From positions 4,018 to 68,017 of the forward strand of contig JAJYJM010000001.1 of the NCBI GenBank assembly GCA_021789495.1: DNA of 64,000 nucleotides, given 5' to 3'. Below, piece after piece: positions 407-53,344 of the stretch. Both the position numbers and the translations under genes were made by a program. Position 1 is the first letter of the stretch; every line of letters begins with the position of its first letter. Source of the stretch: Nitrospirota bacterium. GTDB lineage: Bacteria; Nitrospirota; JACRHJ01. The notes under the pieces were generated by a model that made no database searches, was not told where the DNA came from, and saw only the letters and a program-made list of their open reading frames with translations.

Positions 407-1640
407 TTGATTATTCGGGCAAAAAAGATATTGCCGATAACCGCGCCGCCGATAGACAACGGCGCCGTTGTTGTTCAGGGCCGCAGGATAGCCGCAATCG
501 GCAGGGAATCCGCCGTCATAAAGAAATATCCGGCAGAGACGGTTGTGGATCTGGGCGACCGGCTTGTCATGCCGGGGCTGGTTAACGCGCACACCCACCT
601 CGAACTCTCGCACCTCAGGGGCAAAATCGGCGAACGGCGCGAGTTCTTTGATTGGATAATCGAACTGGTGGAGGCCAGGCGCAGGCTCGGCACGAAAGGG
701 CTTCAGCAGGCTCTGAGGGCCTCGCTTATGGAGATTTTAACCTCCGGCACGACCTGCATCGGCGACATATCCGCAACCGAGGCCGCGCTTCCGATGCTCT
801 CCAAAAGCGGACTCAGGGCGACGGTATTCCTTGAAGCGCTCGGCCCGGACGAGCGCAAGGCGGAGCAGGTATTCAAGGGCCTGAAGGCCCGCCTTGCGAA
901 ACTCGAAACCCTGCCGGACAGGGTCTCAGTCGGCGTGTCGCCGCATTCGACTTATTCGGTATCTCCATTGTTAATAAAGAAGATAGCAGAATATACATCA
1001 GAAAATAGTTTATCTGTTGCAGTTCATCTATCTGAAAGTAAACATGAAAATCTATATATAAACGGCAAGGCCTCAAACATCGACGGCTACATGAAACACT
1101 TCGGCTGGGATAGGATAAAAAGGAAAAAGGCCCGCTCGCCCCTAGGACTTCTGAGCCGGGCAGGGCTTGAGAATTTTGCGGCGGCGCACTGCGTGCACAT
1201 CTCCGGGCAGGACATCAAGCACATGAAAAGCAAGGATATTTCCGCCATTTTCTGCCCAAGGAGCAATTACTTCCTTGGTGTCGGCAAGGCGCCCGTGGAA
1301 AAAATGACACAGGCGGGGCTTAACATTGCCATTGGGACGGACAGCCTGGCGAGCAACGTAAACCTCAACCTCTGGGACGAGATGCGGTTTGCCTACCTCG
1401 TGAGCCGCCTCCCGGCAAGGAATATCATTGAGATGGCGACGATAAACGGGGCCAGGGCCCTGGGGCTTGAAGGGATAACCGGCTCTCTCACGCCGGGCAA
1501 GGAGGCGGATATTATCGCCATTCACAGCGACGCAGCAAGGTCGAAAGACCCGTATTATACCCTCCTGATGGACACGCGCGGCCAGGACGTCTCCACCGTA
1601 ATCGTCCAGGGCAGACCCCTGCATTCCACCGACGGATACA

Positions 1641-1657
<17 letters not shown>
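407..1657 (+). CDS. amidohydrolase family protein (MTA/SAH or aminodeoxyfutalosine deaminase-like)
   Basis: TTG start. PGLVNAHTHLELS metal-binding motif and overall chlorohydrolase/MtaD-like architecture. Directly followed by mqn radical SAM genes. Confidence 0.75.
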
Positions 1658-2720
<1,063 letters not shown>

Positions 2721-2738
2721 GAAAGGGACGAAAAAACC

Positions 2739-2852
2739 TGGATTCCCGATTAAATCAATCGGGAATGACGAACAAAAGCAGACTGTCATTCACGCGAAAG
2801 CGGGAATCCAGTGACTTTCATAACTCACCTAAATCATTCGGGAATGACAGGT
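2739..2852. repeat. cluster of short repeat segments: hairpin attcccgat-N7-atcgggaat, a TGTCATTCACGCGAAAGCGGGAATCC copy and an inverted partial copy
   Basis: Read directly in the mqn intergenic spacer. Related to copies at 17488, 31177, 43466, 45811, 50238 and 50763. Confidence 0.6.
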
Positions 2853-2854
2853 AA

Positions 2855-3913
2855 ATGAAAGCACTGCTTAAAAAAGCCGCGTGCGGCAAGCGCCTGACAA
2901 AGGACGAGGGAATCTCCCTGTTCCTTGGAGCGGACCTGCTGTCCCTCGCCAGGACTGCGGACATGGTGCGGAAGCGCTTGCACCCGGAGGGCGTCGTCTC
3001 CTTCATCATAGACAGGAACATTAACTATACCAATGTCTGCGTAAACCAGTGCCGGTTCTGCGCTTTTTACAGAAGCGAGGACGCGCCGGAGGCATATCTC
3101 CTGCCGGATGACGTAATATTTCAGAAAATTAAAGAGACCGTTGAGGTCGGCGGCACGCAGATACTCATACAGGGCGGCCTGCACCCAAGGCTCGATATTT
3201 CATATTACAGGAGACTGTTCTCCGCTATAAAGAAACGTTTTACCATTAATATTCATGGGCTTTCGCCTGCGGAGATAAAGCATATTGCGAAGAATTCAGA
3301 GCTAACAATCAGAGAAACCTTGATTAATCTGAAGGAAGCCGGTCTGGATTCGATACCCGGCGGCGGCGCGGAGATACTGGTTGACAGCGTCCGGGGCGAG
3401 GTAAGCCCTAAGAAAATATCGTATGAGGGCTGGCGCTACGTGATGCTGACGGCCCAGGAACTCGGCTTTCCCACAACAGCGACGATGATGTTCGGAAGCG
3501 TGGAGAGGCCTGAGGACATTGTCGAGCATATCTTCCGTGTGCGGGAGATGCAGGACGCGCATCACGGCTTCACCGCATTTATCCCCTGGACGTATCAACC
3601 GGGCAATACCGAACTTGGCGGAAAAACGGCTACAAGCGTGGAATACCTCCGGGTACTCGCGTTCTCCCGGCTTTTCCTGGACAACGTCCCAAACTTGCAG
3701 GTCTCGTGGGTTACGCAGGGGGCGGCAATGGCCCAGGCGGCGCTTCGGTTCGGAGCGAACGATTTCGGGAGCACGATGCTCGAAGAGAACGTCGTGGCCG
3801 CAGCCGGAGTAAAAAACCGCTTAGACACTAGGGACATTGTATATCTAATTAAAAATGCAGGTTTCACCCCTGCGCAGCGCGATACCAAGTATTCGATTTT
3901 AAAGGTTTTTTAG
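2855..3913 (+). CDS. menaquinone (futalosine pathway) radical SAM enzyme, MqnC/MqnE family (second paralog)
   Basis: CVNQCRFCAF motif. Paralogous to the preceding ORF with the same conserved blocks. Confidence 0.8.
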   Translation: MKALLKKAACGKRLTKDEGISLFLGADLLSLARTADMVRKRLHPEGVVSFIIDRNINYTNVCVNQCRFCAFYRSEDAPEAYLLPDDVIFQKIKETVEVGGTQILIQGGLHPRLDISYYRRLFSAIKKRFTINIHGLSPAEIKHIAKNSELTIRETLINLKEAGLDSIPGGGAEILVDSVRGEVSPKKISYEGWRYVMLTAQELGFPTTATMMFGSVERPEDIVEHIFRVREMQDAHHGFTAFIPWTYQPGNTELGGKTATSVEYLRVLAFSRLFLDNVPNLQVSWVTQGAAMAQAALRFGANDFGSTMLEENVVAAAGVKNRLDTRDIVYLIKNAGFTPAQRDTKYSILKVF

Positions 3914-3994: not shown

Positions 3995-4035
3995 GTTGAA
4001 AATAAAACAATCCCTCTCCCGGCAACAGTCGGGAG
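3995..4035 (-). terminator. rho-independent terminator-like hairpin (ccctctcccg-N8-cgggagaggg followed by T-run on minus strand)
   Basis: Perfect 10 bp GC-rich stem. Downstream T-rich tract when read on the minus strand. Lies downstream of the minus-strand lipoprotein gene. Confidence 0.45.
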
Positions 4036-4146
4036 AGGGTGCTTAAAAACTAAGCATCTTTAAAAAATATAAGCAAATTTTAATCTGAAAACGGTTGTCA
4101 TTTAAATGACGGAACCATATAAAATATAAAATTTATCGTCAAGAAA

Positions 4147-16537: not shown

Positions 16538-16538
<1 letters not shown>

Positions 16539-17449
16539 TACACGTGCTCCTGGACCCAGCCCTCGTATAGTCCGTAACGCTCCATTACGTCCTGCGCGGC
16601 CAGGTATTCTTTCTCTGTTATCTTCCTGTCTATCTCCGGGTAATCAGCCGCCTCGTAAGTCGGGAAATACTGGTCCATTAAACTGACGGCAACCTGCGGT
16701 GATAGCTCTTTCGCTATAAATTTCAGAACCTCTTCCGTCCCGGAAATATTCTCCGGAAGGACGAGGTGACGGATGATAAGCCCGCGCGCAGCCATACCGT
16801 CGCCGTCCGTTTTAAGAAGTCCGACCTGCCTGAACATCTCCATTATTGCCGCCCGGTTATATGAGGCGTATTTCCTTGCCTTTGAATATTTCTTTGCAAG
16901 CTCGTCGTTTGAATACCTCATATCCGGGAGATATATGTCTACTACGCCGTCCAGGAGCCGAAGCGCCGGCAAGGATTCATACCCGCTCGTGTTATAGACG
17001 ATGGGGATATTGAACCCGCCTTCGACTGCGATAACCAGCGCCTCAAGAATCTGCGGCATGTAGTGCGTCGGCGTTACGAGGTTTATATTGTGCGCGCCTC
17101 GCCCCCGAAGTTCCAGCATAATCTTCGCAAGCCCGGTCGCGTCGTATTCTACGCCGTTTCCTTTGTGGCTGATGGGCCAGTTCTGGCAGTAGGCGCACTT
17201 TAATGTGCAGTGGCTGAAAAATATCGTGCCGGAGCCGCGAGCGCCGGATATTGCCGGCTCCTCGCCGAAGTGCAGGTTATACGATGCAGCCTTCGCCTTC
17301 GCGCCCGCGCCGCACAGCCCCACCTGCCCTTCCAGCCTGTTCACCCCGCAGTCGTTCGGGCACAGGTCGCATTTCTCAAGACGCGCCAGCGCGGATGATG
17401 CGCGGGAATTAAGTTCGTCGATAGAAATATTCAAACAATTTGCTTTCAT
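16538..17449 (-). CDS. radical SAM protein, PflX family (COG1313, PFL-activating-enzyme-like)
   Basis: N-terminal [12 protein letters not shown] cysteine motif followed by the [10 protein letters not shown] radical SAM motif. The listed N-terminal extension overlaps a repeat, so start is placed at MKANCLNI. Confidence 0.65.
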
Positions 17450-17487
17450 CAGTGATTTGTATGTTACCCGCCGTGAACATTGAAAGT

Positions 17488-17515
17488 CGCCGGGTTCCCG
17501 CTTTCGCGGGAATGA
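17488..17515 (-). repeat. copy of dispersed repeat (TGTCATTCCCGCGAAAGCGGGAACC)
   Basis: Read directly. Near-identical to the copy at 2788-2813. Confidence 0.6.
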
Positions 17516-17530
17516 CAATACAGATGGATC

Positions 17531-25390: not shown

Positions 25391-25582
25391 CGGATTTTCT
25401 CCTTTAGGTTTGATTAACGAAAATAATAATTCCTCCGGCGCTTTTTGTCCACGATAAATTCAAGGAACCGTCCTTATAATAATAAATTTTCGCAACCTTG
25501 TATGCAAGGCTTGAAATTATTGAAGAAAAATAAATGTAAATTACCTTGAAATTTTTTCTTATACGTGGTATGTTTTTAAAGA

Positions 25583-27085
25583 ATGTGTTTTTCTAATCCG
25601 GATTCGGCCTTCAACCGAGTACTACTTATCCAGCCGCCTTTCTCAAGATGGCCTGGAGAAGCGAAAGTCGTGCAGCCGCCGCTTGGGCTTGCATACATCG
25701 CAGCCGTTCTTGAAAAGGACGGGTACACGGTCAAGATCATCGATGCGCCATTGGAAGGGTACGAAGAGGAAATAAAATTTTCTGATGGCAGACACAGATA
25801 CGGGCTGAGCTATGAGGAAATACTCAAGAGGGTTAAGGAATTCAGACCGGACATCATAGGCATATCCTGCTCTTTTTCGACCCTTTTTTACACGGTCTGC
25901 GAGTTAAGCCGCGAGATAAAGAAATTCGACAAGAGCATAAAGATATGCGTTGGCGGGGCACACCCGACATCTGTCCCGGAAGAGGTGCTTGAACGGGAGG
26001 AGATAGATTTCGTCATCATAGGTGAGGGCGAGGCCAGGTTCAGCCAGCTTCTTGCGGCCCTGTCGGCGGGAGAATCCCTTTCCGCGATTGACGGCCTGGG
26101 ATACAGGCAGGGTAACAAGGTTTTGATTAACCCGCCAGTGAACTACATCCGGGACCTCGATGAAATACCGTTCCCGGCGCGGCATCTGCTCGACATGGAA
26201 AAGTATCTCCGGATCAACAAGCCGCACGGGGTCTCGACGAAGGGTGACCGCGCGACGACCATCATAACGTCGCGCGGCTGTCCGGCGAACTGCATATTCT
26301 GCTCGATTCACGGCATCTGGGGCAGGAAGTTCAGGGTCAGGTCTCCTGAAAACGTTATAAAGGAAATAGAACTCTTGAAAACGCAGTACGGCATAGACGA
26401 GATCCTCTTCGAGGACGACAACCTTACCTTTGATAACAAACGGGCCGAGAAGATATTCGACCTTATGATCGACAAGGGCTTCAACCTGCACTGGAAAACC
26501 CCCAACGGCGTGGCGCTGTGGCGGCTTACTGAAACCTTGATTGCCAAGATGAGGAAAAGCGGGTGCTACCATCTGGCCTTTGCCATCGAGTCAGGAAACG
26601 ACCATGTGCTCCACGGGATAATCAAGAAACCGCTCAACCTTAAGAAGGTCAAAACTCTTATCGATGCGGCTAAGAGGTGCGGAATAATAGCTGAGGGCTT
26701 CTTTGTGCTGGGATTTCCGGGTGAGACCTTCGAGCAGATGAAAGAGACGTTCAAATATGCCCTGCATCTAGGGCTCGACAAGGCTAACTTCATGATAGCA
26801 ACGCCTTATCCGGGCACACGGCTGTATGAGGTCTGCGTCAAGGACGGCTATCTCGCCGACGGTTTCGACTACAAGGACCTGATTACGAGAAGGGCCAGCA
26901 TCAAGACTCCGGACTTTACGCCCGCGCAGGTGGAAAGATTCGTCTCCAGGTTGATTCTGAGTTTTCAGGCACACAGGATAATAAAAAACCCATTCGGAGC
27001 GTTTCGCATATTAACTACCAGGTTCATGTCCGACCCGATAACCATGTTCAAGTGGCTATTGGAAAGGGTAACGGAAGCCTGTTAA
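25583..27085 (+). CDS. B12-binding domain radical SAM protein (class B radical SAM)
   Basis: N-terminal cobalamin-binding Rossmann region (LLIQPP...PLGLAYIAA). SRGCPANCIFCS radical SAM motif. 500 aa. Confidence 0.75.
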   Translation: MCFSNPDSAFNRVLLIQPPFSRWPGEAKVVQPPLGLAYIAAVLEKDGYTVKIIDAPLEGYEEEIKFSDGRHRYGLSYEEILKRVKEFRPDIIGISCSFSTLFYTVCELSREIKKFDKSIKICVGGAHPTSVPEEVLEREEIDFVIIGEGEARFSQLLAALSAGESLSAIDGLGYRQGNKVLINPPVNYIRDLDEIPFPARHLLDMEKYLRINKPHGVSTKGDRATTIITSRGCPANCIFCSIHGIWGRKFRVRSPENVIKEIELLKTQYGIDEILFEDDNLTFDNKRAEKIFDLMIDKGFNLHWKTPNGVALWRLTETLIAKMRKSGCYHLAFAIESGNDHVLHGIIKKPLNLKKVKTLIDAAKRCGIIAEGFFVLGFPGETFEQMKETFKYALHLGLDKANFMIATPYPGTRLYEVCVKDGYLADGFDYKDLITRRASIKTPDFTPAQVERFVSRLILSFQAHRIIKNPFGAFRILTTRFMSDPITMFKWLLERVTEAC

Positions 27086-27600: not shown

Positions 27601-28095
27601 ATGACTCAATCACTCAAGCTCGAAGAATCTTTTTTGAAGATAGCCTCGGATGAGGCGCTTCCCTTAAGACTTACCCTCGCCAACCGCGAAAGGCTGACCG
27701 GCGTGGTAAAATCGGTCGGGAAATACGACCTGACGCTCGAATCCGAAGGGCGCGTAGTCGCGCTTATGAAAAAGGAAGTCTTCCAGGCGATTCCCCCGCG
27801 CGACATCCTCGATGAATCCTTCTTCAAAGCCCCGATGGACGAAGAGCAGTTTCCGCAGAAATCCCGCGTGCAGGACGAGTTCCTGAGCCGCTTTGTAAAG
27901 GAGCGGACTCTCGCCCTCCTGCGGCTCATAAACGGCGAAGAAATCCGGGGCGTCATAGACGGCTACGACGGCTTCACCATCTCCATAAGGACCGGCAGGG
28001 GCCAGGCTATGATATACAAGCACGGTATATGCAGCATCAGCCCCGGTTACAGGCGGCGGCAGACCGGCAGCCCGGCTTCAGTCGAGGGAAAATGA
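27601..28095 (+). CDS. Hfq-like protein with two tandem Sm domains
   Basis: Two repeats match the Hfq pattern (QSL..FLN..R.E..PV.I.L.NG..L.G.I.SFD.F.ILL.....Q.MVYKHAIS). The second carries the MIYKHGI Sm2 motif. Confidence 0.6.
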   Translation: MTQSLKLEESFLKIASDEALPLRLTLANRERLTGVVKSVGKYDLTLESEGRVVALMKKEVFQAIPPRDILDESFFKAPMDEEQFPQKSRVQDEFLSRFVKERTLALLRLINGEEIRGVIDGYDGFTISIRTGRGQAMIYKHGICSISPGYRRRQTGSPASVEGK

Positions 28096-28493
28096 ACGGC
28101 AATCCGTTTGACGATACGCTCGAAGAGTTTTATTCCAGGGGAACGGAGGCCGCTTTTGTCCTGAAAGACGGCTCCCGGCTCACAGGCAGGATAAAGCGGT
28201 TCGACGGCTATGTCGTTTTCCTTGAAAACGGCGCCGAGATGATGGTATATCGCCATTCAATCCTGAAACTCTCCGAAGCCGCGGCGCAGGATCGCGCCGA
28301 GACTCAGACGCGCCCGTTATCCGAACCCAAGACGGCTCCAGCGCCGAAATCCCGCCCGAAAACCCTTCCGCGCCCCAAAAGACCGCCCAGAAAGGAACAG
28401 TCTTTTTCCGTCCAGCAGAAGGAGCCGGGGGCTGTTTCCAGGATGGGGGAAGAGCTCCTGAAGTGGCTTAAAAACCAGAAGGGCAATGAGTAA
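28092..28493 (+). CDS. Hfq-like Sm domain protein with basic Pro/Lys-rich C-terminal tail
   Basis: A third Hfq-like domain (LTGRIKRFDGYVVFLENGAEMMVYRHSI). ATGA stop/start overlap with the preceding ORF. Low-complexity tail. Confidence 0.6.
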   Translation: MNGNPFDDTLEEFYSRGTEAAFVLKDGSRLTGRIKRFDGYVVFLENGAEMMVYRHSILKLSEAAAQDRAETQTRPLSEPKTAPAPKSRPKTLPRPKRPPRKEQSFSVQQKEPGAVSRMGEELLKWLKNQKGNE

Positions 28494-31176: not shown

Positions 31177-31202
31177 GTCATTCTGAACGAAGTGAAGAAT
31201 CC
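31177..31202 (+). repeat. copy of dispersed repeat (GTCATTCTGAACGAAGTGAAGAATCC)
   Basis: Read directly. Overlaps the annotated GTG start of the following gene. Confidence 0.6.
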
Positions 31203-31845
31203 GCCCTTAGTTATTGACGAGCTTTTGCGACATTACAAGTCACGCAAAGCCGAAATACGCGCCCGCCTCGCCGAGTTCAAGGAAACATGGCGGCAGGGAG
31301 ACCTTGCGATATTCAAGGAACTCTGCTTCTGTATCCTGACGGCGAACACCTCCGCGAGGATGGGCATCACCTGCATCGAGGCTGCGGACGACGACATTCT
31401 GACCGCCGACGCCGAAGGCATACGGAATATCCTCTGCGGCAGATACCGCTTCTGGAAGACCCGTCCGAATTATATTGTGCATACGCGGGAATACTTAAAA
31501 AGCGAGTGCGGCCTTAAAATCAAGAGGCAAATCGAATCCCTGTCAGACTTTCACGAGCGCCGCGATTTCTTCGCCGACAACCCCGGCGTCAAGGGCCTGG
31601 GCTACAAAGAAGCGAGCCACTTCCTGCGGAACATCGGTTTTGAAGGCTACGCAATCCTCGACATACACGTAGTCCGCCTGCTGCACGAACTGGGCGTGCT
31701 CCCGGAGGCGAGACGCCCGGCGAACAGGAAGCAGTATGTCTTCATGGAAGAGAGGATGCGCGAGTTTTCAAAGGACATCAAAATCGGGATGGATGACCTC
31801 GACCTCGCACTATGGAGCTACAGGACGGGGGAAATACTGAAGTAG
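31192..31845 (+). CDS. N-glycosylase/DNA lyase (Ogg2/archaeal-type 8-oxoguanine DNA glycosylase)
   Basis: HhH-GPD pattern with conserved K and D (KGLGYKEASHFLRNIG...ILDIH). Confidence 0.75.
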   Translation: MKNPPLVIDELLRHYKSRKAEIRARLAEFKETWRQGDLAIFKELCFCILTANTSARMGITCIEAADDDILTADAEGIRNILCGRYRFWKTRPNYIVHTREYLKSECGLKIKRQIESLSDFHERRDFFADNPGVKGLGYKEASHFLRNIGFEGYAILDIHVVRLLHELGVLPEARRPANRKQYVFMEERMREFSKDIKIGMDDLDLALWSYRTGEILK

Positions 31846-48429: not shown

Positions 48430-49337
48430 GCTATGTCCTCGAAAAATGTTATCTTCCTAAACTCCCTGTAGCGCCCTTCGATTTCCTTGTAGTCGAGACT
48501 TTTCATCCCGTTCAGGCTGAAGTCCTCCACGTTGAAGGACGCCATGACGCTCCCGAATATTATCGCCTGCCGAAGCGACGCCTCGTCGAAATTCTGCACG
48601 TTGTCCAGGTATCCCATGAACCCGCCCGCGAAGCTGTCCCCGGCGCCGGTCGGGTCGAATACGGCCTCAAGGGGATATGCCGGGGCGGAGAATATCCCGC
48701 CGGAATTGAACATTACGGAGCCGTATTCGCCCCGCTTTACGATAAGGGTGCCGGGCCCCATCGCCTGCACGGCCCGCGCGGCCTTGACGAGGTTCGGCTC
48801 CCCGGCGAGTTCCCTCGCCTCGGCCTCGTTTATAAGGAGTATGTCCACCTCGGCCAGCGTCTTTACAAGCTCGTCCTTTTTTCCGCCTATCCAGAAGTTC
48901 ATGGTATCGCAGGCGACGAGCTTCGGCCTGTTTATCTGGTGCAGGACTTCCCTCTGGAGCACAGGGTCGATATTGGCGAGGAACACGACATCGGATGCGC
49001 GGTATGCGTCCGGGATATTCGGCCTGAAGCTCTCGAACACATTCAACTGCGTATCGAGCGTCCTGGCTTCGTTCAAGTCGTAGCCGTACTCGCCCTTCCA
49101 CCGGAAGGTCCGTCCCTCGGATTTCTGGAGGCCGGAGACGTCGATCCTGCGGTTTTTAAGGAACTGGACGTGCTTGTCCGGAAAATCATCCCCGACGACC
49201 GCGACAAGCTTCACGTCCGTGAAGTAGCTTGCCGCCGTGGAGAAATATGTCGCGGAACCGCCCAGTACTTCATCGGCGGCTCCAAACGGTGTCTTGACAC
49301 TGTCGAACGCAATGGAACCCACGACCAGCAAGCTCAA
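48426..49337 (-). CDS. PfkB family carbohydrate/nucleoside kinase
   Basis: DPTGAGDSFAGG motif near the C-terminus. N-terminal GG dipeptide region. Confidence 0.8.
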   Translation of the reverse strand: MSLLVVGSIAFDSVKTPFGAADEVLGGSATYFSTAASYFTDVKLVAVVGDDFPDKHVQFLKNRRIDVSGLQKSEGRTFRWKGEYGYDLNEARTLDTQLNVFESFRPNIPDAYRASDVVFLANIDPVLQREVLHQINRPKLVACDTMNFWIGGKKDELVKTLAEVDILLINEAEARELAGEPNLVKAARAVQAMGPGTLIVKRGEYGSVMFNSGGIFSAPAYPLEAVFDPTGAGDSFAGGFMGYLDNVQNFDEASLRQAIIFGSVMASFNVEDFSLNGMKSLDYKEIEGRYREFRKITFFEDIA

Positions 49338-49340
49338 TCG

Positions 49341-50213
49341 CTATACCTCCTGCCCGACGTATTTCCCGATGATTGCGTCGAGTTTCCTTTTGGTTTCCTC
49401 CGGTATAAGCTCAGCCGAGGTCATTATGGCGTATTTCAGGGAATCCCCGCACGCGCACGAACGCGAAACCGGCATGGCCTCCACGGCTATCTGAATAATC
49501 TTCTTGGCTGTCTCCACGTTCTTTCTGAGGATGGCGATTACGGCCTCGATTGTAACGTCTTCCTCGGTCTCGTGCCAGCAGTCGTAGTCCGTCGCAAGCG
49601 CAAGCGTCGCATAGCATATCTCCGCCTCGCGCGCAAGCTTCGCCTCCGTTACGTTAGTCATGCCGATTACGTCCACTCCCCAGCCGCGGTATATCCTCGA
49701 TTCGCCCCTGGTGGAGAACTGCGGGCCTTCCATGCAGATATACGTCCCGCCCCTATGCATCTTCGCGCCGGCCTTAACTCCCGCGTCATAAAGCGCGCCC
49801 GCAAGCTCCGGGCAGACCGGGTCTGCAAATCCGACGTGCGCCACGACCCCGCCGCCGAAGAACGTGCTGACGCGGTTCTTAGTCTGGTCGTAGAACTGGT
49901 CCGGGACGACAATCTCGCCGGGCCGGATTTCCTCCTTCATGCTCCCGACGGCGGAGACGGATATTATACGCTCGACGCCGAGTTTCTTCATGGCGTAGAT
50001 GTTCGCCCGGTAGTTTATCTCCGAGGGCGTGAACCTGTGCCCCCGGCCATGTCGCGGGAGAAACGCGAGCCTCCTGCCTTCAAGGGTGCCCAGGACGAAC
50101 TCGTCCGACGGCTCCCCGAACGGTGTATCCACCCGGACGGACGTAACGTATTTAAGGCCCTCCATGTCGTAGAGACCGCTTCCGCCTATGACTCCTATCT
50201 CCGCTTCGGACAA
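49341..50213 (-). CDS. mtnP: S-methyl-5'-thioadenosine phosphorylase
   Basis: [12 protein letters not shown]-terminus. PNP/MTAP family blocks. Confidence 0.85.
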
Positions 50214-50762
50214 TTCAAGCTCCTTTTTTCTTTGTCATTCGGAAAATGCCAATAGAACTAAAGAATTATAAGGCATTGGAACTGTTTTGTAAAGGGATTT
50301 CGGGCGGACTAAAAGCAGGGGCTTAAGTTTATTGCGTCCGGCATTCCCGTGAAATCGGGAACCCGGCGGCTTTTCTTACCCTCGCCCTTTCATGGGAGAG
50401 GATGGCCGAAGGCCGGGAGAGGGTTCGCCGTTTTCCTGATTTGTAATTGCCAGATTCATCGGGCGGCGTCTGGAAATTACGATGCGATTTAATTATAATA
50501 TCGAGCCACGCACCAAGAGTAAACCTAATCGGTCGGGAAAGTTCGTTCTCAGGATAATTTACTATGAGCTACGATAACTCCCCGCCAACTTTGGATTATT
50601 TTTATAAATTCCCGAATTTTTCGGCGGAATCGGAAACGGGCTGAAAACGGGCCGTTTTCGGGCATTTTCGGGGCAAAAAGGAGGGGCGGAGAAGGGGGCG
50701 ATTTGGCGGGTTTTCTATGGATATTCCATTTATTTTACAACCGGTTAAACAATAAAACGCTG

Positions 50763-50789
50763 TCATTCCGAGCGAAGCGAAGAATCCGA
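50763..50789 (+). repeat. copy of dispersed repeat (TGTCATTCCGAGCGAAGCGAAGAATCC)
   Basis: Read directly. Lies within the 700 bp ORF-free region. A partial copy is also at 50238-50255. Confidence 0.6.
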
Positions 50790-50928
50790 CTATCGCCTTT
50801 GTAACCCATTGAAAACGTTGAAATCCTATTTTGCGTTTTCGGCGGGTTTGAACGGCCTGCGGCGACTTATTGAAGGTTATTTATATAATGAGAGAAACGG
50901 CGGGTTTTTAATCGCCTTTAATCAGGCG

Positions 50929-51468
50929 TTATTCCTTGAAATATCCGGAGGTTACCCTCTCCCAGTCTCCCCTCGCCTGAAGGATTAAATCTATGACCTC
51001 TCGCACTGCGGCCTCGCCCCCGCGCCTCTCCGTTACCATGTCCGCCGCCTCCCTGACATACGGCTCGGCGTCCGCAACCGCGATAGAAAGCCCCACCCGC
51101 CTCATAACCGGCAGGTCCACATTATCGTCCCCGATGTAAGCGACCTCCTCGTCCACTACGCCCAGTCTGTCCTTAAGCTCTTGATATGCCGGGAGTTTTT
51201 CCTTCGCCCCCTGGATTACGTGCTCTATTCCAAGCTCCCCGGCCCGGACATTCACCACCTTGGAATTCCTGCCCGTAATGAGCGCTACATCCACCCCGGC
51301 GCGCATCAGAAGCTTTATTCCGTGCCCGTCCCGGACGTGAAAGACCTTATATTCCAAGCCGTTACCGTCGAGTATTATCTCCCCACGGGTCAACACTCCG
51401 TCCACGTCGGATATAAAAAGCTTTATTTTCGAGGCCTTGCGCCGTATTCCCAAGTCCTTGTTTTTCAT
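50929..51468 (-). CDS. kdsC: 3-deoxy-D-manno-octulosonate 8-phosphate phosphatase
   Basis: HAD motif I FISDVDGVLT. KdsC-size (179 aa). Confidence 0.85.
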   Translation of the reverse strand: MKNKDLGIRRKASKIKLFISDVDGVLTRGEIILDGNGLEYKVFHVRDGHGIKLLMRAGVDVALITGRNSKVVNVRAGELGIEHVIQGAKEKLPAYQELKDRLGVVDEEVAYIGDDNVDLPVMRRVGLSIAVADAEPYVREAADMVTERRGGEAAVREVIDLILQARGDWERVTSGYFKE

Positions 51469-52421
51469 ACGATTCCCGCCTTCAGCAGGTCGTGCAGGTG
51501 GATTATCCCGTCCGGGCGGCCCTTTTCGTCCACGGTCAAAAGCGAGGTTATGGAATGCCTCTCCATTACGGAAACCGCCTCCGCCGCAAGCGAATTCCTG
51601 TTTATTATCTTGGGGTTGCCATGCGCAAGCTCTCCGGCGCTCCGGGAGAAGAGATCGTCGGATTTCTCAAGATAGCGCCTTAAGTCCCCGTCGGTTATGA
51701 CGCCGACCAGCTTCCCATTGTCGTCCACGACAGTCGTTACGCCCATCTTCTTCGAGGTTATCTCGAAAAGCGCCTCACGCATGGAGGTTTCCGCTTTTAC
51801 GACGGGCACTTCCGGGCCTTTGTGCATGAGGTCCTCGACCCGCAGGAGGAGCCTTTTCCCAAGGCTTCCGCCGGGGTGGAAGCAGGCGAAGTCCTCCTCT
51901 TTAAACCCGCGTTTTTCAAGGAGAGTAATGGCAATTGCGTCCCCCATCGCGAGCGCGGCGGTGGTGGAAGCCGTCGGAGCAAGCCCAAGCGGACAGGCCT
52001 CCTCGGAGACGCCAACGTCAATCGTAACCTCGGCGGCCTTGGAAAGCGAGGAATCCATCCCGCCGGTAAGGGCTATGACTGGGATTGCCAACCTCTTGAA
52101 AACAGGGAGCAATTTTACTATTTCCTCCGTCTCTCCCGAATTGGATATGGCTATTACAATGTCGCCCCTCGTTACCATCCCCAGGTCGCCGTGTATTCCA
52201 TCGGCGGGGTGCAGGAACAGTGCCGGAGTGCCGGTAGAGGCAAGCGTTGCGGCGATTTTTTTGCCTATAAGGCCGGATTTCCCCATGCCTGTAACGACTA
52301 CGCGGCCCTTGCAGGCAAGGATTATCTCCATAGCCCGCGTGAACCCGCCGTCTATCCTGTCGATAAGGGCAAGTATCGCCTCGGCCTCGATTTTCAGGAC
52401 TTTTTTCGCACCGTCGAGCAT
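51465..52421 (-). CDS. kdsD: arabinose-5-phosphate isomerase (KdsD/KpsF; SIS plus tandem CBS)
   Basis: SIS motif VTGMGKSGLIG. Two C-terminal CBS domains. Start moved to the internal Met. Confidence 0.85.
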   Translation of the reverse strand: MLDGAKKVLKIEAEAILALIDRIDGGFTRAMEIILACKGRVVVTGMGKSGLIGKKIAATLASTGTPALFLHPADGIHGDLGMVTRGDIVIAISNSGETEEIVKLLPVFKRLAIPVIALTGGMDSSLSKAAEVTIDVGVSEEACPLGLAPTASTTAALAMGDAIAITLLEKRGFKEEDFACFHPGGSLGKRLLLRVEDLMHKGPEVPVVKAETSMREALFEITSKKMGVTTVVDDNGKLVGVITDGDLRRYLEKSDDLFSRSAGELAHGNPKIINRNSLAAEAVSVMERHSITSLLTVDEKGRPDGIIHLHDLLKAGIV

Positions 52422-53329
52422 TATGCCTCCGCCGTCGCGGGCCGGCCCGCCGCCGCGCGGACTGCAATAATCTGCTTTATTATCATAGACATTCCGGCAA
52501 TATCCACCATGTTCGGCCCGTCGCAGAGGGCCTCGTCGGGGCATGGATGGACTTCCATAAATATCCCGTCGATGCCGACAGCCGCAGCCGCGCGCGCAAG
52601 GGGCGCGACGAACTGCCTGTCGCCTGAGCTTTTGTCCCCTCCTACGCCGGGCAGCTGGACACTGTGTGTCGCGTCGAATATCACGGGATAGCCCATTTCG
52701 CGCATTATTATAAGCGCGCGGAAGTCCACGACAAGGTTGTTATATCCGAACGAGGCGCCGCGCTCGGTGAGGATAATGTCATCGTAAACCCCTCGCCCTG
52801 CGGGAGAGGGGCAGGGGGTGAGGGCTTCATCTGCCGCTCTTATTTTGTTTATTACGTTCTTCATCTCCCAGGGTGACATAAACTGGCCCTTCTTCACGTT
52901 CACGGGTTTGCCAGTCCTGGCCGCCGCCTGGAGGATGTCCGTCTGACGGCAGAGGAATGCCGGTATCTGAAGCGCGTCCAGGACCTCAGCCGCGGGAGCC
53001 GCCTGTTCCGGGAGGTGAATGTCTGAAATCACCGGGACGCGAAAAGTCTCCTTCACCTTGGCAAGAAGTTTTAAACCGTCCGCCATACCCGGCCCACGGT
53101 ATGAGGACGATGAACTCCTATTCGCCTTGTCGAACGACGACTTGAATACGAGCGGCACGCGCAGGTCTGCGGCGGCCTTAACAACCTGCTCCGCCGCATT
53201 CATAAGCTTCGCCTCGGACTCGATGACGCACGGCCCGGCAATCAGCACGAGCGGACTGCCGCCGCCGAGTTTGATGGGACCTATTTTAATTTCTTTTGTC
53301 ACCCTCTCCCCCATCCCCTCTCCCATCAA
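52421..53329 (-). CDS. kdsA: 2-dehydro-3-deoxyphosphooctonate aldolase (KDO8P synthase)
   Basis: Conserved KSSFDKANRSS, GANFGY.NLVVD and DATHSVQ blocks. Contains a ~14 aa insertion coincident with a GC-rich hairpin element. True start probably the ATG at 53326 or 53314. Confidence 0.85.
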   Translation of the reverse strand: MMGEGMGERVTKEIKIGPIKLGGGSPLVLIAGPCVIESEAKLMNAAEQVVKAAADLRVPLVFKSSFDKANRSSSSSYRGPGMADGLKLLAKVKETFRVPVISDIHLPEQAAPAAEVLDALQIPAFLCRQTDILQAAARTGKPVNVKKGQFMSPWEMKNVINKIRAADEALTPCPSPAGRGVYDDIILTERGASFGYNNLVVDFRALIIMREMGYPVIFDATHSVQLPGVGGDKSSGDRQFVAPLARAAAAVGIDGIFMEVHPCPDEALCDGPNMVDIAGMSMIIKQIIAVRAAAGRPATAEA

Positions 53330-53344
53330 GGGCGAGGGAAAAAA

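Follow-up and report, generated by a model that had tools for sequence, protein, structure and literature searches.

Introduction

The REP/BIME elements of enterobacteria and the intergenic mosaic elements of Neisseria are mosaics of short palindromes that lie between convergent or tandem operons. Palindromic elements can also enter coding sequence, those of Rickettsia reportedly having been described by Ogata et al. in 2000 as found inside genes. The Neisseria Transformation Sequence (NTS) has a 28-nt consensus, CGTCATTCCCGCGMAVGCGGGAATCYRG, which contains the dRS3 palindrome; in the work that sets it out, which also mentions BIMEs, a match is accepted with one mismatch or by means of a degenerate pattern (SRM), and the GIY-YIG nuclease SsnA is described as cutting these hairpins in single-stranded DNA in Neisseria, similar motifs being widespread (PMC11893778). 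Rho-dependent terminators, as defined by the RhoTermPredict criteria, consist of a rut site plus a pause, the rut site being judged by the C/G ratio and C spacing over 78 nt (PMC6407284).

Here we examine the gap between kdsC and mtnP in a 64,000-nt stretch of DNA from a Nitrospirota metagenome-assembled genome (MAG), the whole of which is referred to below as the window. An earlier note had singled out this gap as a candidate for a novel small RNA (sRNA) or a decayed element. In its components, the gap is an ordinary though inflated inter-operon spacer, built of further examples of known component types, and the reading that we prefer, and consider probable, is that it is a non-genic spacer between two operons that has been recently enlarged, and neither an RNA gene nor a pseudogene. 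This carries little meaning for biology at large, since a long "empty" region of a Nitrospirota MAG would be explained by ordinary processes, namely the insertion of non-coding DNA and of palindromic repeats between operons, an operon swap at the same boundary, a standard promoter, and a likely Rho-type terminator. The features discussed are collected in Table 1, and related loci are cited by number (L086 and the like) where they have to be told apart.

Table 1. Features of the kdsC-mtnP gap and of its two flanking genes, in window coordinates
Feature	Position	Strand	Sequence and remarks
mtnP	49341-50213	-	S-methyl-5'-thioadenosine phosphorylase; flanking gene, first of the next operon
mtnP 5' leader	50214-50264	-	Ribosome-binding site GGAG (50220-50223); TTG start at 50213
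Predicted sigma-70 promoter of mtnP	50265-50293	-	TTTACA (50293-50288), 17 nt, TATAAT (50270-50265)
Degenerate NTS/dRS3-like hairpin	50339-50373	+	CGGCATTCCCGTGAAATCGGGAACCCGG; departs from the NTS consensus at 4 positions
GC-rich palindromic element	50378-50429		Parts ACCCTCGCCC..GGGAGAGG, GGCCGAAGGCC, GGGAGAGGGT
Single-copy palindrome	50443-50480		GTAATTGCCAGA..TCTGGAAATTAC; 12-nt arms, 14-nt loop; in the rearrangement junction
Block D, promoter-like	50488-50543	-	AACTTTCCCGACCGATTAGG, TTTACT, then N20-TATAAT or N17-TATTAT
Block C, candidate rut site	50616-50720 (lower end about 50600)	-	C-rich, G-poor operon-strand RNA
Perfect palindrome	50641-50657		GAAAACGG-g-CCGTTTTC; 17 bp, inside block C
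Block B	50864-50720		Common to L085 and L094; includes hairpin repeat TGTCATTCCGAGCGAAGCGAAGAATC (50761-50790)
Dispersed hairpin repeat	50761-50790	+	TGTCATTCCGAGCGAAGCGAAGAATCCGAC; GTCATTC head and GAATC tail of an NTS/Ssn-related hairpin
Block A, AT-rich	50865-50912 (50928-50865 including the small hairpin)	-	Adjoins kdsC
Small hairpin	50913-50928	-	CGCCTGATTAAAGGCG; immediately past the kdsC stop codon
kdsC	50929-51468	-	Flanking gene, last of the kdsB-pyrG-kdsA-kdsD-kdsC operon; Pfam Hydrolase_3 and gene order

The kdsC-mtnP gap and its flanking genes

Read along the minus strand, on which all of these genes lie, the order is kdsB-pyrG-kdsA-kdsD-kdsC, the gap, and mtnP-pfkB-(250 aa)-rodZ-like. 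The identity of the two flanking genes is supported by a score of 328 bits for MtnP against the TIGR01694 MTAP model (cutoff 275), and by the near homologues of KdsC, which carry that name in their source records. The 715 bp between them (50214-50928) had been described as devoid of ORFs of 60 codons or more on either strand and as the longest such stretch of the window, and both statements were confirmed: the strictly ORF-free run comprises 673 bp (50256-50928), an antisense shadow ORF on the plus strand (48939-50255) intruding by 42 nt, and the runner-up in the window measures 233 bp. Gene callers likewise put nothing in the gap on two identical public metagenome contigs (ENA ERZ27233562 and ERZ27236914). 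The GC content of the gap is 41-56%, versus approximately 55-70% in the flanking coding DNA.

Evolutionary history of the spacer

Comparison of the DNA behind kdsC in related genomes bears most directly on the origin of the gap. In the outgroups, the spacer before pgsA measures only 71-108 nt, being 71 and 108 nt, ahead of pgsA-plsY, where KdsC is 67-68% identical to that of the window, and 74 nt, ahead of pgsA, at 81% identity; at 85% the spacer is 342 nt, and among relatives with 85-91% it reaches 440-600 nt, pgsA still being the next gene. In L086 (KdsC 88% and MtnP 95% identical to the window proteins), the spacer of 817 nt leads to mtnP, and the window itself has kdsC, 715 nt, and mtnP. 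The length of the spacer behind kdsC thus tracks the relatedness of KdsC to that of the window, and for this reason the long spacer is best seen as a derived gain in one sub-clade. The ancestral state, because the outgroups show it, would have been kdsC, a spacer of 71-108 nt, and pgsA-plsY; one Nitrospirota sub-clade would then have gained approximately 270-500 nt of non-coding DNA behind kdsC, and afterwards, in the lineage that the window shares with L086, pgsA would have given way to the mtnP operon, its own promoter included, the joint of the kdsC and mtnP segments being packed with small palindromic repeats. The kdsC-mtnP adjacency is, on these comparisons, a further rearrangement common to the window and L086.

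The mtnP side of the joint can be followed in the best relatives of MtnP, which are Nitrospirota MAGs (L005, 90% identity; L006, 78%). The genes upstream of mtnP in both are mutL-miaA-hfq-NUDIX (L005:1597-3909; L006:1216-3820), unlike the arrangement in the window, and DNA homology between the window and L005 stops at 50304. The adjoining segment, 50305-50495, has no counterpart in the pgsA-type relatives and holds three palindromic elements, and between block D and the downstream promoter the set of hairpins differs lineage by lineage, which is what one would expect of a hotspot of insertion and recombination. The window has only distant matches to Hfq itself, at 39% and 25% identity, located in a pair of neighboring ORFs (27868-28385).

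The source of the inserted DNA was sought more widely. A search of 1.1 Mb of fetched loci, of plasmids, and of JGI metagenomes turned up no further copies, and blastn of the gap against 72,556 plasmids, which would have revealed similarity to mobile elements or plasmids, gave no match. A metagenome scan with a strict block-D pattern returned 0 hits; a relaxed block-C pattern returned 73, all of which were dismissed as chance, none having extended similarity or a nearby kdsC.

Palindromic repeats at the junction

The repeats at the joint include members of two families with other copies in the window. The earlier note had placed one full and one partial copy of a dispersed repeat in the gap, and both are present: the copy at 50339-50373 is 91% complementary to 17483-17514, and 50762-50788, within the copy at 50761-50790, is 89% identical to 31177-31203. 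The strict GTCATTC..GAAYC pattern occurs in 5 window copies, versus 0.34 in shuffles. The 50761-50790 hairpin retains TGTCATTC with a differing loop, and 96% identical copies occur at other loci in relatives. The GC-rich hairpin CCCTCGCCCTTTCATGGGAGAGG reported at 50379-50401 was likewise found; the element to which it belongs has a counterpart of 96% identity over 52 nt at the equivalent position of L086, and its family is also represented at 4012-4039, inside kdsA (approximately 52790-52824), and at 53302-53338. A general excess of hairpins was considered and set aside, the gap containing 6 versus 4.2 +/- 1.6 in dinucleotide shuffles (p ~0.19); the only hairpins above shuffles are the repeat-family members and the palindrome with 12-bp arms at 50443-50480.

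The dispersed family resembles the Neisseria NTS/dRS3 and Ssn-related motifs in its ATTCCC-N8-GGGAAT palindrome, its oriented GTCATT head, its multiple copies, and its intergenic location. The number of mismatches to the 28-nt NTS consensus is 2 at 2784-2811, 2 at 17490-17517, and 4 for the gap copy (50339-50366), whereas 100 dinucleotide shuffles gave zero matches at 4 or fewer mismatches. The SRM pattern is matched at 17490-17517 but not by the gap copy, whose core, ATTCCC-GTGAAATC-GGGAAC, departs from ATTCCC-N8-GGGAAT by one mismatch in the 3' arm and forms a stem in which seven ATTCCCG/CGGGAAU pairs are extended by outer pairs. The C-GTC-ATT 5' flank needed for SsnA binding is replaced in the gap copy, which reads CGGCATT, and a crude motif scan combined with a listing of small ORFs found no ssnA-like GIY-YIG ORF in the 64-kb window. 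Because the GTC head is lost (GGC in its place), the SRM pattern fails, and the window showed no ORF resembling ssnA, we regard the gap copy at 50339-50373, in a Nitrospirota host, as a probable decayed relative of the NTS repeat and not as a proven member.

The likeness to REP/BIME and Neisseria mosaics is that the content varies among close relatives and is located at rearrangement points; the gap differs in that neither a REP-type GTAG head nor a RAYT transposase was seen, and half of it (blocks A-D) is single-copy. The three palindromic elements between 50339 and 50480 would be selfish or recombination-prone repeats, of the NTS/dRS3 and GC-rich families, that mark the junction. The presence, in Nitrospirota, of hairpins near-identical to the Neisseria NTS/dRS3 at a synteny break fits the view that such repeats accompany genome rearrangement. 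The suggestion of a "decayed element" is accordingly upheld in part, since the gap does contain degenerate dispersed palindromic repeats and recently gained DNA, whereas decay of a protein gene is not borne out, there being no Pfam match, remnant, or shared frame.

Members of the family were also noted elsewhere. Three clustered NTS/dRS3-like hairpins occupy 2741-2849, in the 134-nt spacer from ORF 1641-2720 to mqnC (2855-3913), one of them being 26/28 identical to the Neisseria NTS consensus. ORF 16538-17518, without an NCBIfam hit, is overlapped at its 5' end by the NTS-like hairpin at 17490-17517, and its start may be mis-set. In L088 (4824-4870), an NTS-like hairpin, GTCATTCCCGAATGGTTCTATCGGGAATCC, is followed by GGTTTTGTTTTTT and resembles an intrinsic terminator, whereas the copies in the window are without a T-run.

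Predicted termination and initiation signals

Ordinary signals for ending one operon and starting the next can be proposed within the gap. The small hairpin CGCCTGATTAAAGGCG past kdsC has a T-rich tail on the plus strand only, so that on the operon strand, where a U-run is missing, it does not qualify as a canonical intrinsic terminator of kdsC; indeed, no intrinsic terminator was found on the operon (minus) strand anywhere in the gap. The AT-rich block A that follows contains a core, ATATAAATAACCTTCAATAA (50867-50886), which is conserved in the window, L085, L088, L092, and L094. The kds transcript would therefore pass the kdsC stop codon, meeting no intrinsic terminator, and would reach, 209 nt past that codon, the start of block C, which is built of units of approximately 11 nt with the form (A/T)4..GCCCG. 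Over 78 nt (50720-50643) this block has 34 C and 11 G, and nowhere else on the minus strand of the window is the C/G ratio as high (3.09, the 99th percentile being 2.0); the bias recurs in L085 (2.5), L088 (2.9), L092 (2.4), and L086 (1.9).

Block C agrees with the published rut criteria in having a C/G ratio above 1 over 78 untranslated nucleotides and in matching the regular expression for C spacing (C every 11-13 nt). Stable structure appears to be lacking (z +0.19; consensus -6 kcal/mol), and hairpins follow within 150 nt, although the only ones near the site, inside it or just after it (50631-50660 and 50606-50667), are A/U-rich and not of the GC-rich type that the prediction tool seeks. 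Since the operon strand has no intrinsic terminator and block C fits these criteria, we infer that Rho would load on the apparently unstructured C-rich stretch (approximately 50720-50616) and end the kds operon transcript there, with the difference from described Rho-dependent terminators that block C is assigned by composition. The perfect palindrome inside this block, already reported in the earlier note, is present as described; it is identical in L086, and an A4/T4 hairpin with other closing pairs stands in the same place in L092 and L088. Another intergenic gap of the window (approximately 25458-25590) contains the second-highest C-over-G peak of the minus strand (3.0), which could be rut-like.

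At the other end of the gap, the predicted sigma-70 promoter of mtnP shows 11 of 12 consensus matches, with hexamers separated by a distance within the 16-18 nt range, upstream of the gene, and with 51 nt between the end of the -10 hexamer and the start codon. The window, L086, L005, and L006 have the same two hexamers, whereas the spacer and flanks vary, so the promoter is well supported by phylogenetic footprinting, and mtnP would be transcribed from this conserved site (50293-50265). A weak upstream start may be added by block D (50543-50488), where a conserved string, AACTTTCCCGACCGATTAGGTTTACT, is followed by TATTAT/TATAAT and the promoter scan gives a score of 9/12; the -35/-10 geometry of this predicted weak promoter is ambiguous (17 or 20 nt). 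Sigma-54 and ECF-type promoters were considered for block D and rejected by eye, as the hexamers do not fit, and an origin of replication (oriC) was discarded because there are no conserved DnaA boxes.

Organization of the C-D block

The one puzzling part of the gap is the stretch from block C to block D (50473-50720, the C-D block). Its alignment among the window, L086, L088, and L092 is gapless save for a one-base shift in L088, while identity among the four lineages is 48-69%, and the distance from the start of block C to block D is fixed at 151-152 nt. An almost gapless block with fixed spacing is not predicted by a plain terminator or by junk DNA and hints at a constraint on length or phase at the DNA level, such as bending or protein sites. 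The centres of A/T tracts fall in the same columns in all four lineages, at intervals of approximately 10-11 nt. This phasing reaches significance in L088 (p ~0.02) and L092 (p < 0.002), and it was rejected as a feature of the window itself (p 0.16), the value for L086 being 0.31.

These observations give some room to an interpretation of the C-D block as a DNA-level regulatory region of the downstream operon, in which phased A/T tracts bending the DNA would be combined with two TTCCCGA..CCG boxes approximately 96 bp apart, the 17-bp palindrome would serve as operator, and block D would be a second, upstream promoter. The co-positioned tracts, with their significant phasing in two of the lineages, are what such a region would display, as is a fixed spacing combined with variable sequence, which fits a protein-binding architecture, and the palindrome is identical in L086. 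We nevertheless regard this interpretation as unlikely, because the phasing is not significant in the window or in L086, block D allows a spacing of either 17 or 20 nt, and the C-D block is missing from the outgroups and stands before unrelated operons (pgsA or mtnP), each of which has a proximal promoter of its own.

It is quite unlikely, in our estimation, that the approximately 250 nt of 50473-50720 form a functional non-coding module, recently acquired by one sub-clade and fixed in length. Such a module could, for instance, be a regulatory RNA without structure, or a Rho-loading site combined with a bent regulatory region to which proteins bind. No described counterpart exists for its conserved islands, CCCCGTCCCCGCACCCCGTTTTT, TTCCCGATACCGCCG, and AATGAACTTTCCCGACCGATGA..TTTACT-N20-TATAAGTAAA.

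Small RNA and pseudogene interpretations

The candidacy of the gap as a novel sRNA finds no support in homology searches or folding. Rfam at gathering thresholds gave nothing in the entire window and ARAGORN detected neither tRNA nor tmRNA, which confirms that tmRNA, RNase P, SRP, and 6S RNA, for which the earlier note could match no signatures, are absent, and a permissive Rfam scan of the gap returned chance hits only (E > 5), namely SAM-V (E 9.9), CRISPR-DR35 (E 5.4), and BSnc120 (E 8.9). The SAM-V match is tempting since mtnP belongs to methionine salvage; a SAM-V riboswitch was rejected because the match reaches 16.5 bits versus a gathering score of 41 and runs antisense to the mtnP promoter, on the plus strand. 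The fold z-scores of the kdsC-proximal 341 nt (50590-50930), +0.19 on the minus and -0.36 on the plus strand, show no advantage over shuffled sequence, and the palindrome-rich 191 nt give about -2 on each strand, as is usual for palindromes. RNAalifold consensus folds for blocks A-B and C-D, on both strands, reach no more than -4.6 to -12.6 kcal/mol for alignments of 220-250 columns, the covariation term ranging from -1.9 to +0.75 kcal/mol, so that a structured RNA was rejected on single-sequence folds and on all four RNAalifold runs. Comparison with the orthologous spacers of five related genomes, which had been proposed as a check, thus revealed hardly any RNA structure in common, whichever strand was taken, and no shared reading frame.

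Conservation gives the same picture. At fourfold-degenerate sites of kdsC and kdsD, the window shares 63-73% of bases with L085, L086, L088, and L092, and 53-64% with L094. Identity within the gap, 71% to L085 over the part that can be aligned and 48-69% in the C-D block, does not in general rise above these values. The near-neutral identity, the lack of a common frame, and the weak consensus folds speak against a structured RNA as well as a pseudogene. Measured against what is expected of a bacterial sRNA gene, the gap provides promoter-like sites only, and is without an operon-strand terminator, a conserved structure, or an Rfam family.

A narrower version of the sRNA proposal holds that a novel small RNA, specific to the lineage, is encoded in the C-D block or in the stretch past the promoter-like site of block D, being unstructured or else a processing product of the kds operon 3' UTR, with the C-rich boxes as seed regions. 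C-rich motifs are typical of some regulatory RNAs, and the conserved islands, the constant C-D length in four lineages, the promoter-like block D, and, in L088, the hairpin repeat past block D with its terminator-like T-run can all be counted in its favor. Yet Rfam offers no match, the consensus structure of the C-D block amounts to just -6 and -4.6 kcal/mol, the window has no terminator after block D, the sequence past D is different in each lineage, and the block is missing from L094 and the outgroups, which together make this version very unlikely.

That the gap is a decayed protein-coding gene is scarcely credible, even though its approximately 700 bp would accommodate a gene and other genes adjoin kdsC or mtnP in relatives. 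No remnants of these neighbors were found, since tblastn with six proteins (PgsA, PlsY, NUDIX, Hfq, MiaA, and the extra ORF of L086) gave only matches with E of at least 0.5. In every relative, each of the six frames of the aligned block is interrupted by stop codons, and the GC content is unlike that of the flanking coding DNA. A small protein was likewise sought, and the seven ORFs of 31-59 aa in the gap gave zero Pfam hits, no frame being open in all relatives.

Palindromic inserts in kdsA and other gene-level observations

Between kdsA and kdsD, L086 carries an extra 492-aa ORF (1534-3012), without a Pfam hit, that is missing from the window and the other relatives. In kdsA itself (52421-53329, minus strand), the GC-rich palindrome CCCTCGCCC..GGGAGAGGG lies in frame at 52790-52824 and adds approximately 14 residues (EALTPCPSPAGRGVY); the same insert is found in L085 (within 2155-3048), is approximately 23 residues longer in L086 (within 493-1518), and is missing from L088, L094, and L096. 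The resemblance to the Rickettsia palindromic elements is that a member of the GC-rich family sits in frame within an essential gene, whereas the sequence family and the host are unrelated, and the likeness concerns the kdsA copy, not the gap. The insertion of a GC-rich palindrome in frame into the essential kdsA of the same genome is a modestly useful observation. At 53302-53338, palindromes CCCTCTCCC / GGGCGAGGG overlap the annotated start of kdsA and supply its first codons (MMGEGMGER), and in relatives without the palindromic element the protein begins MI/TREIKIG.
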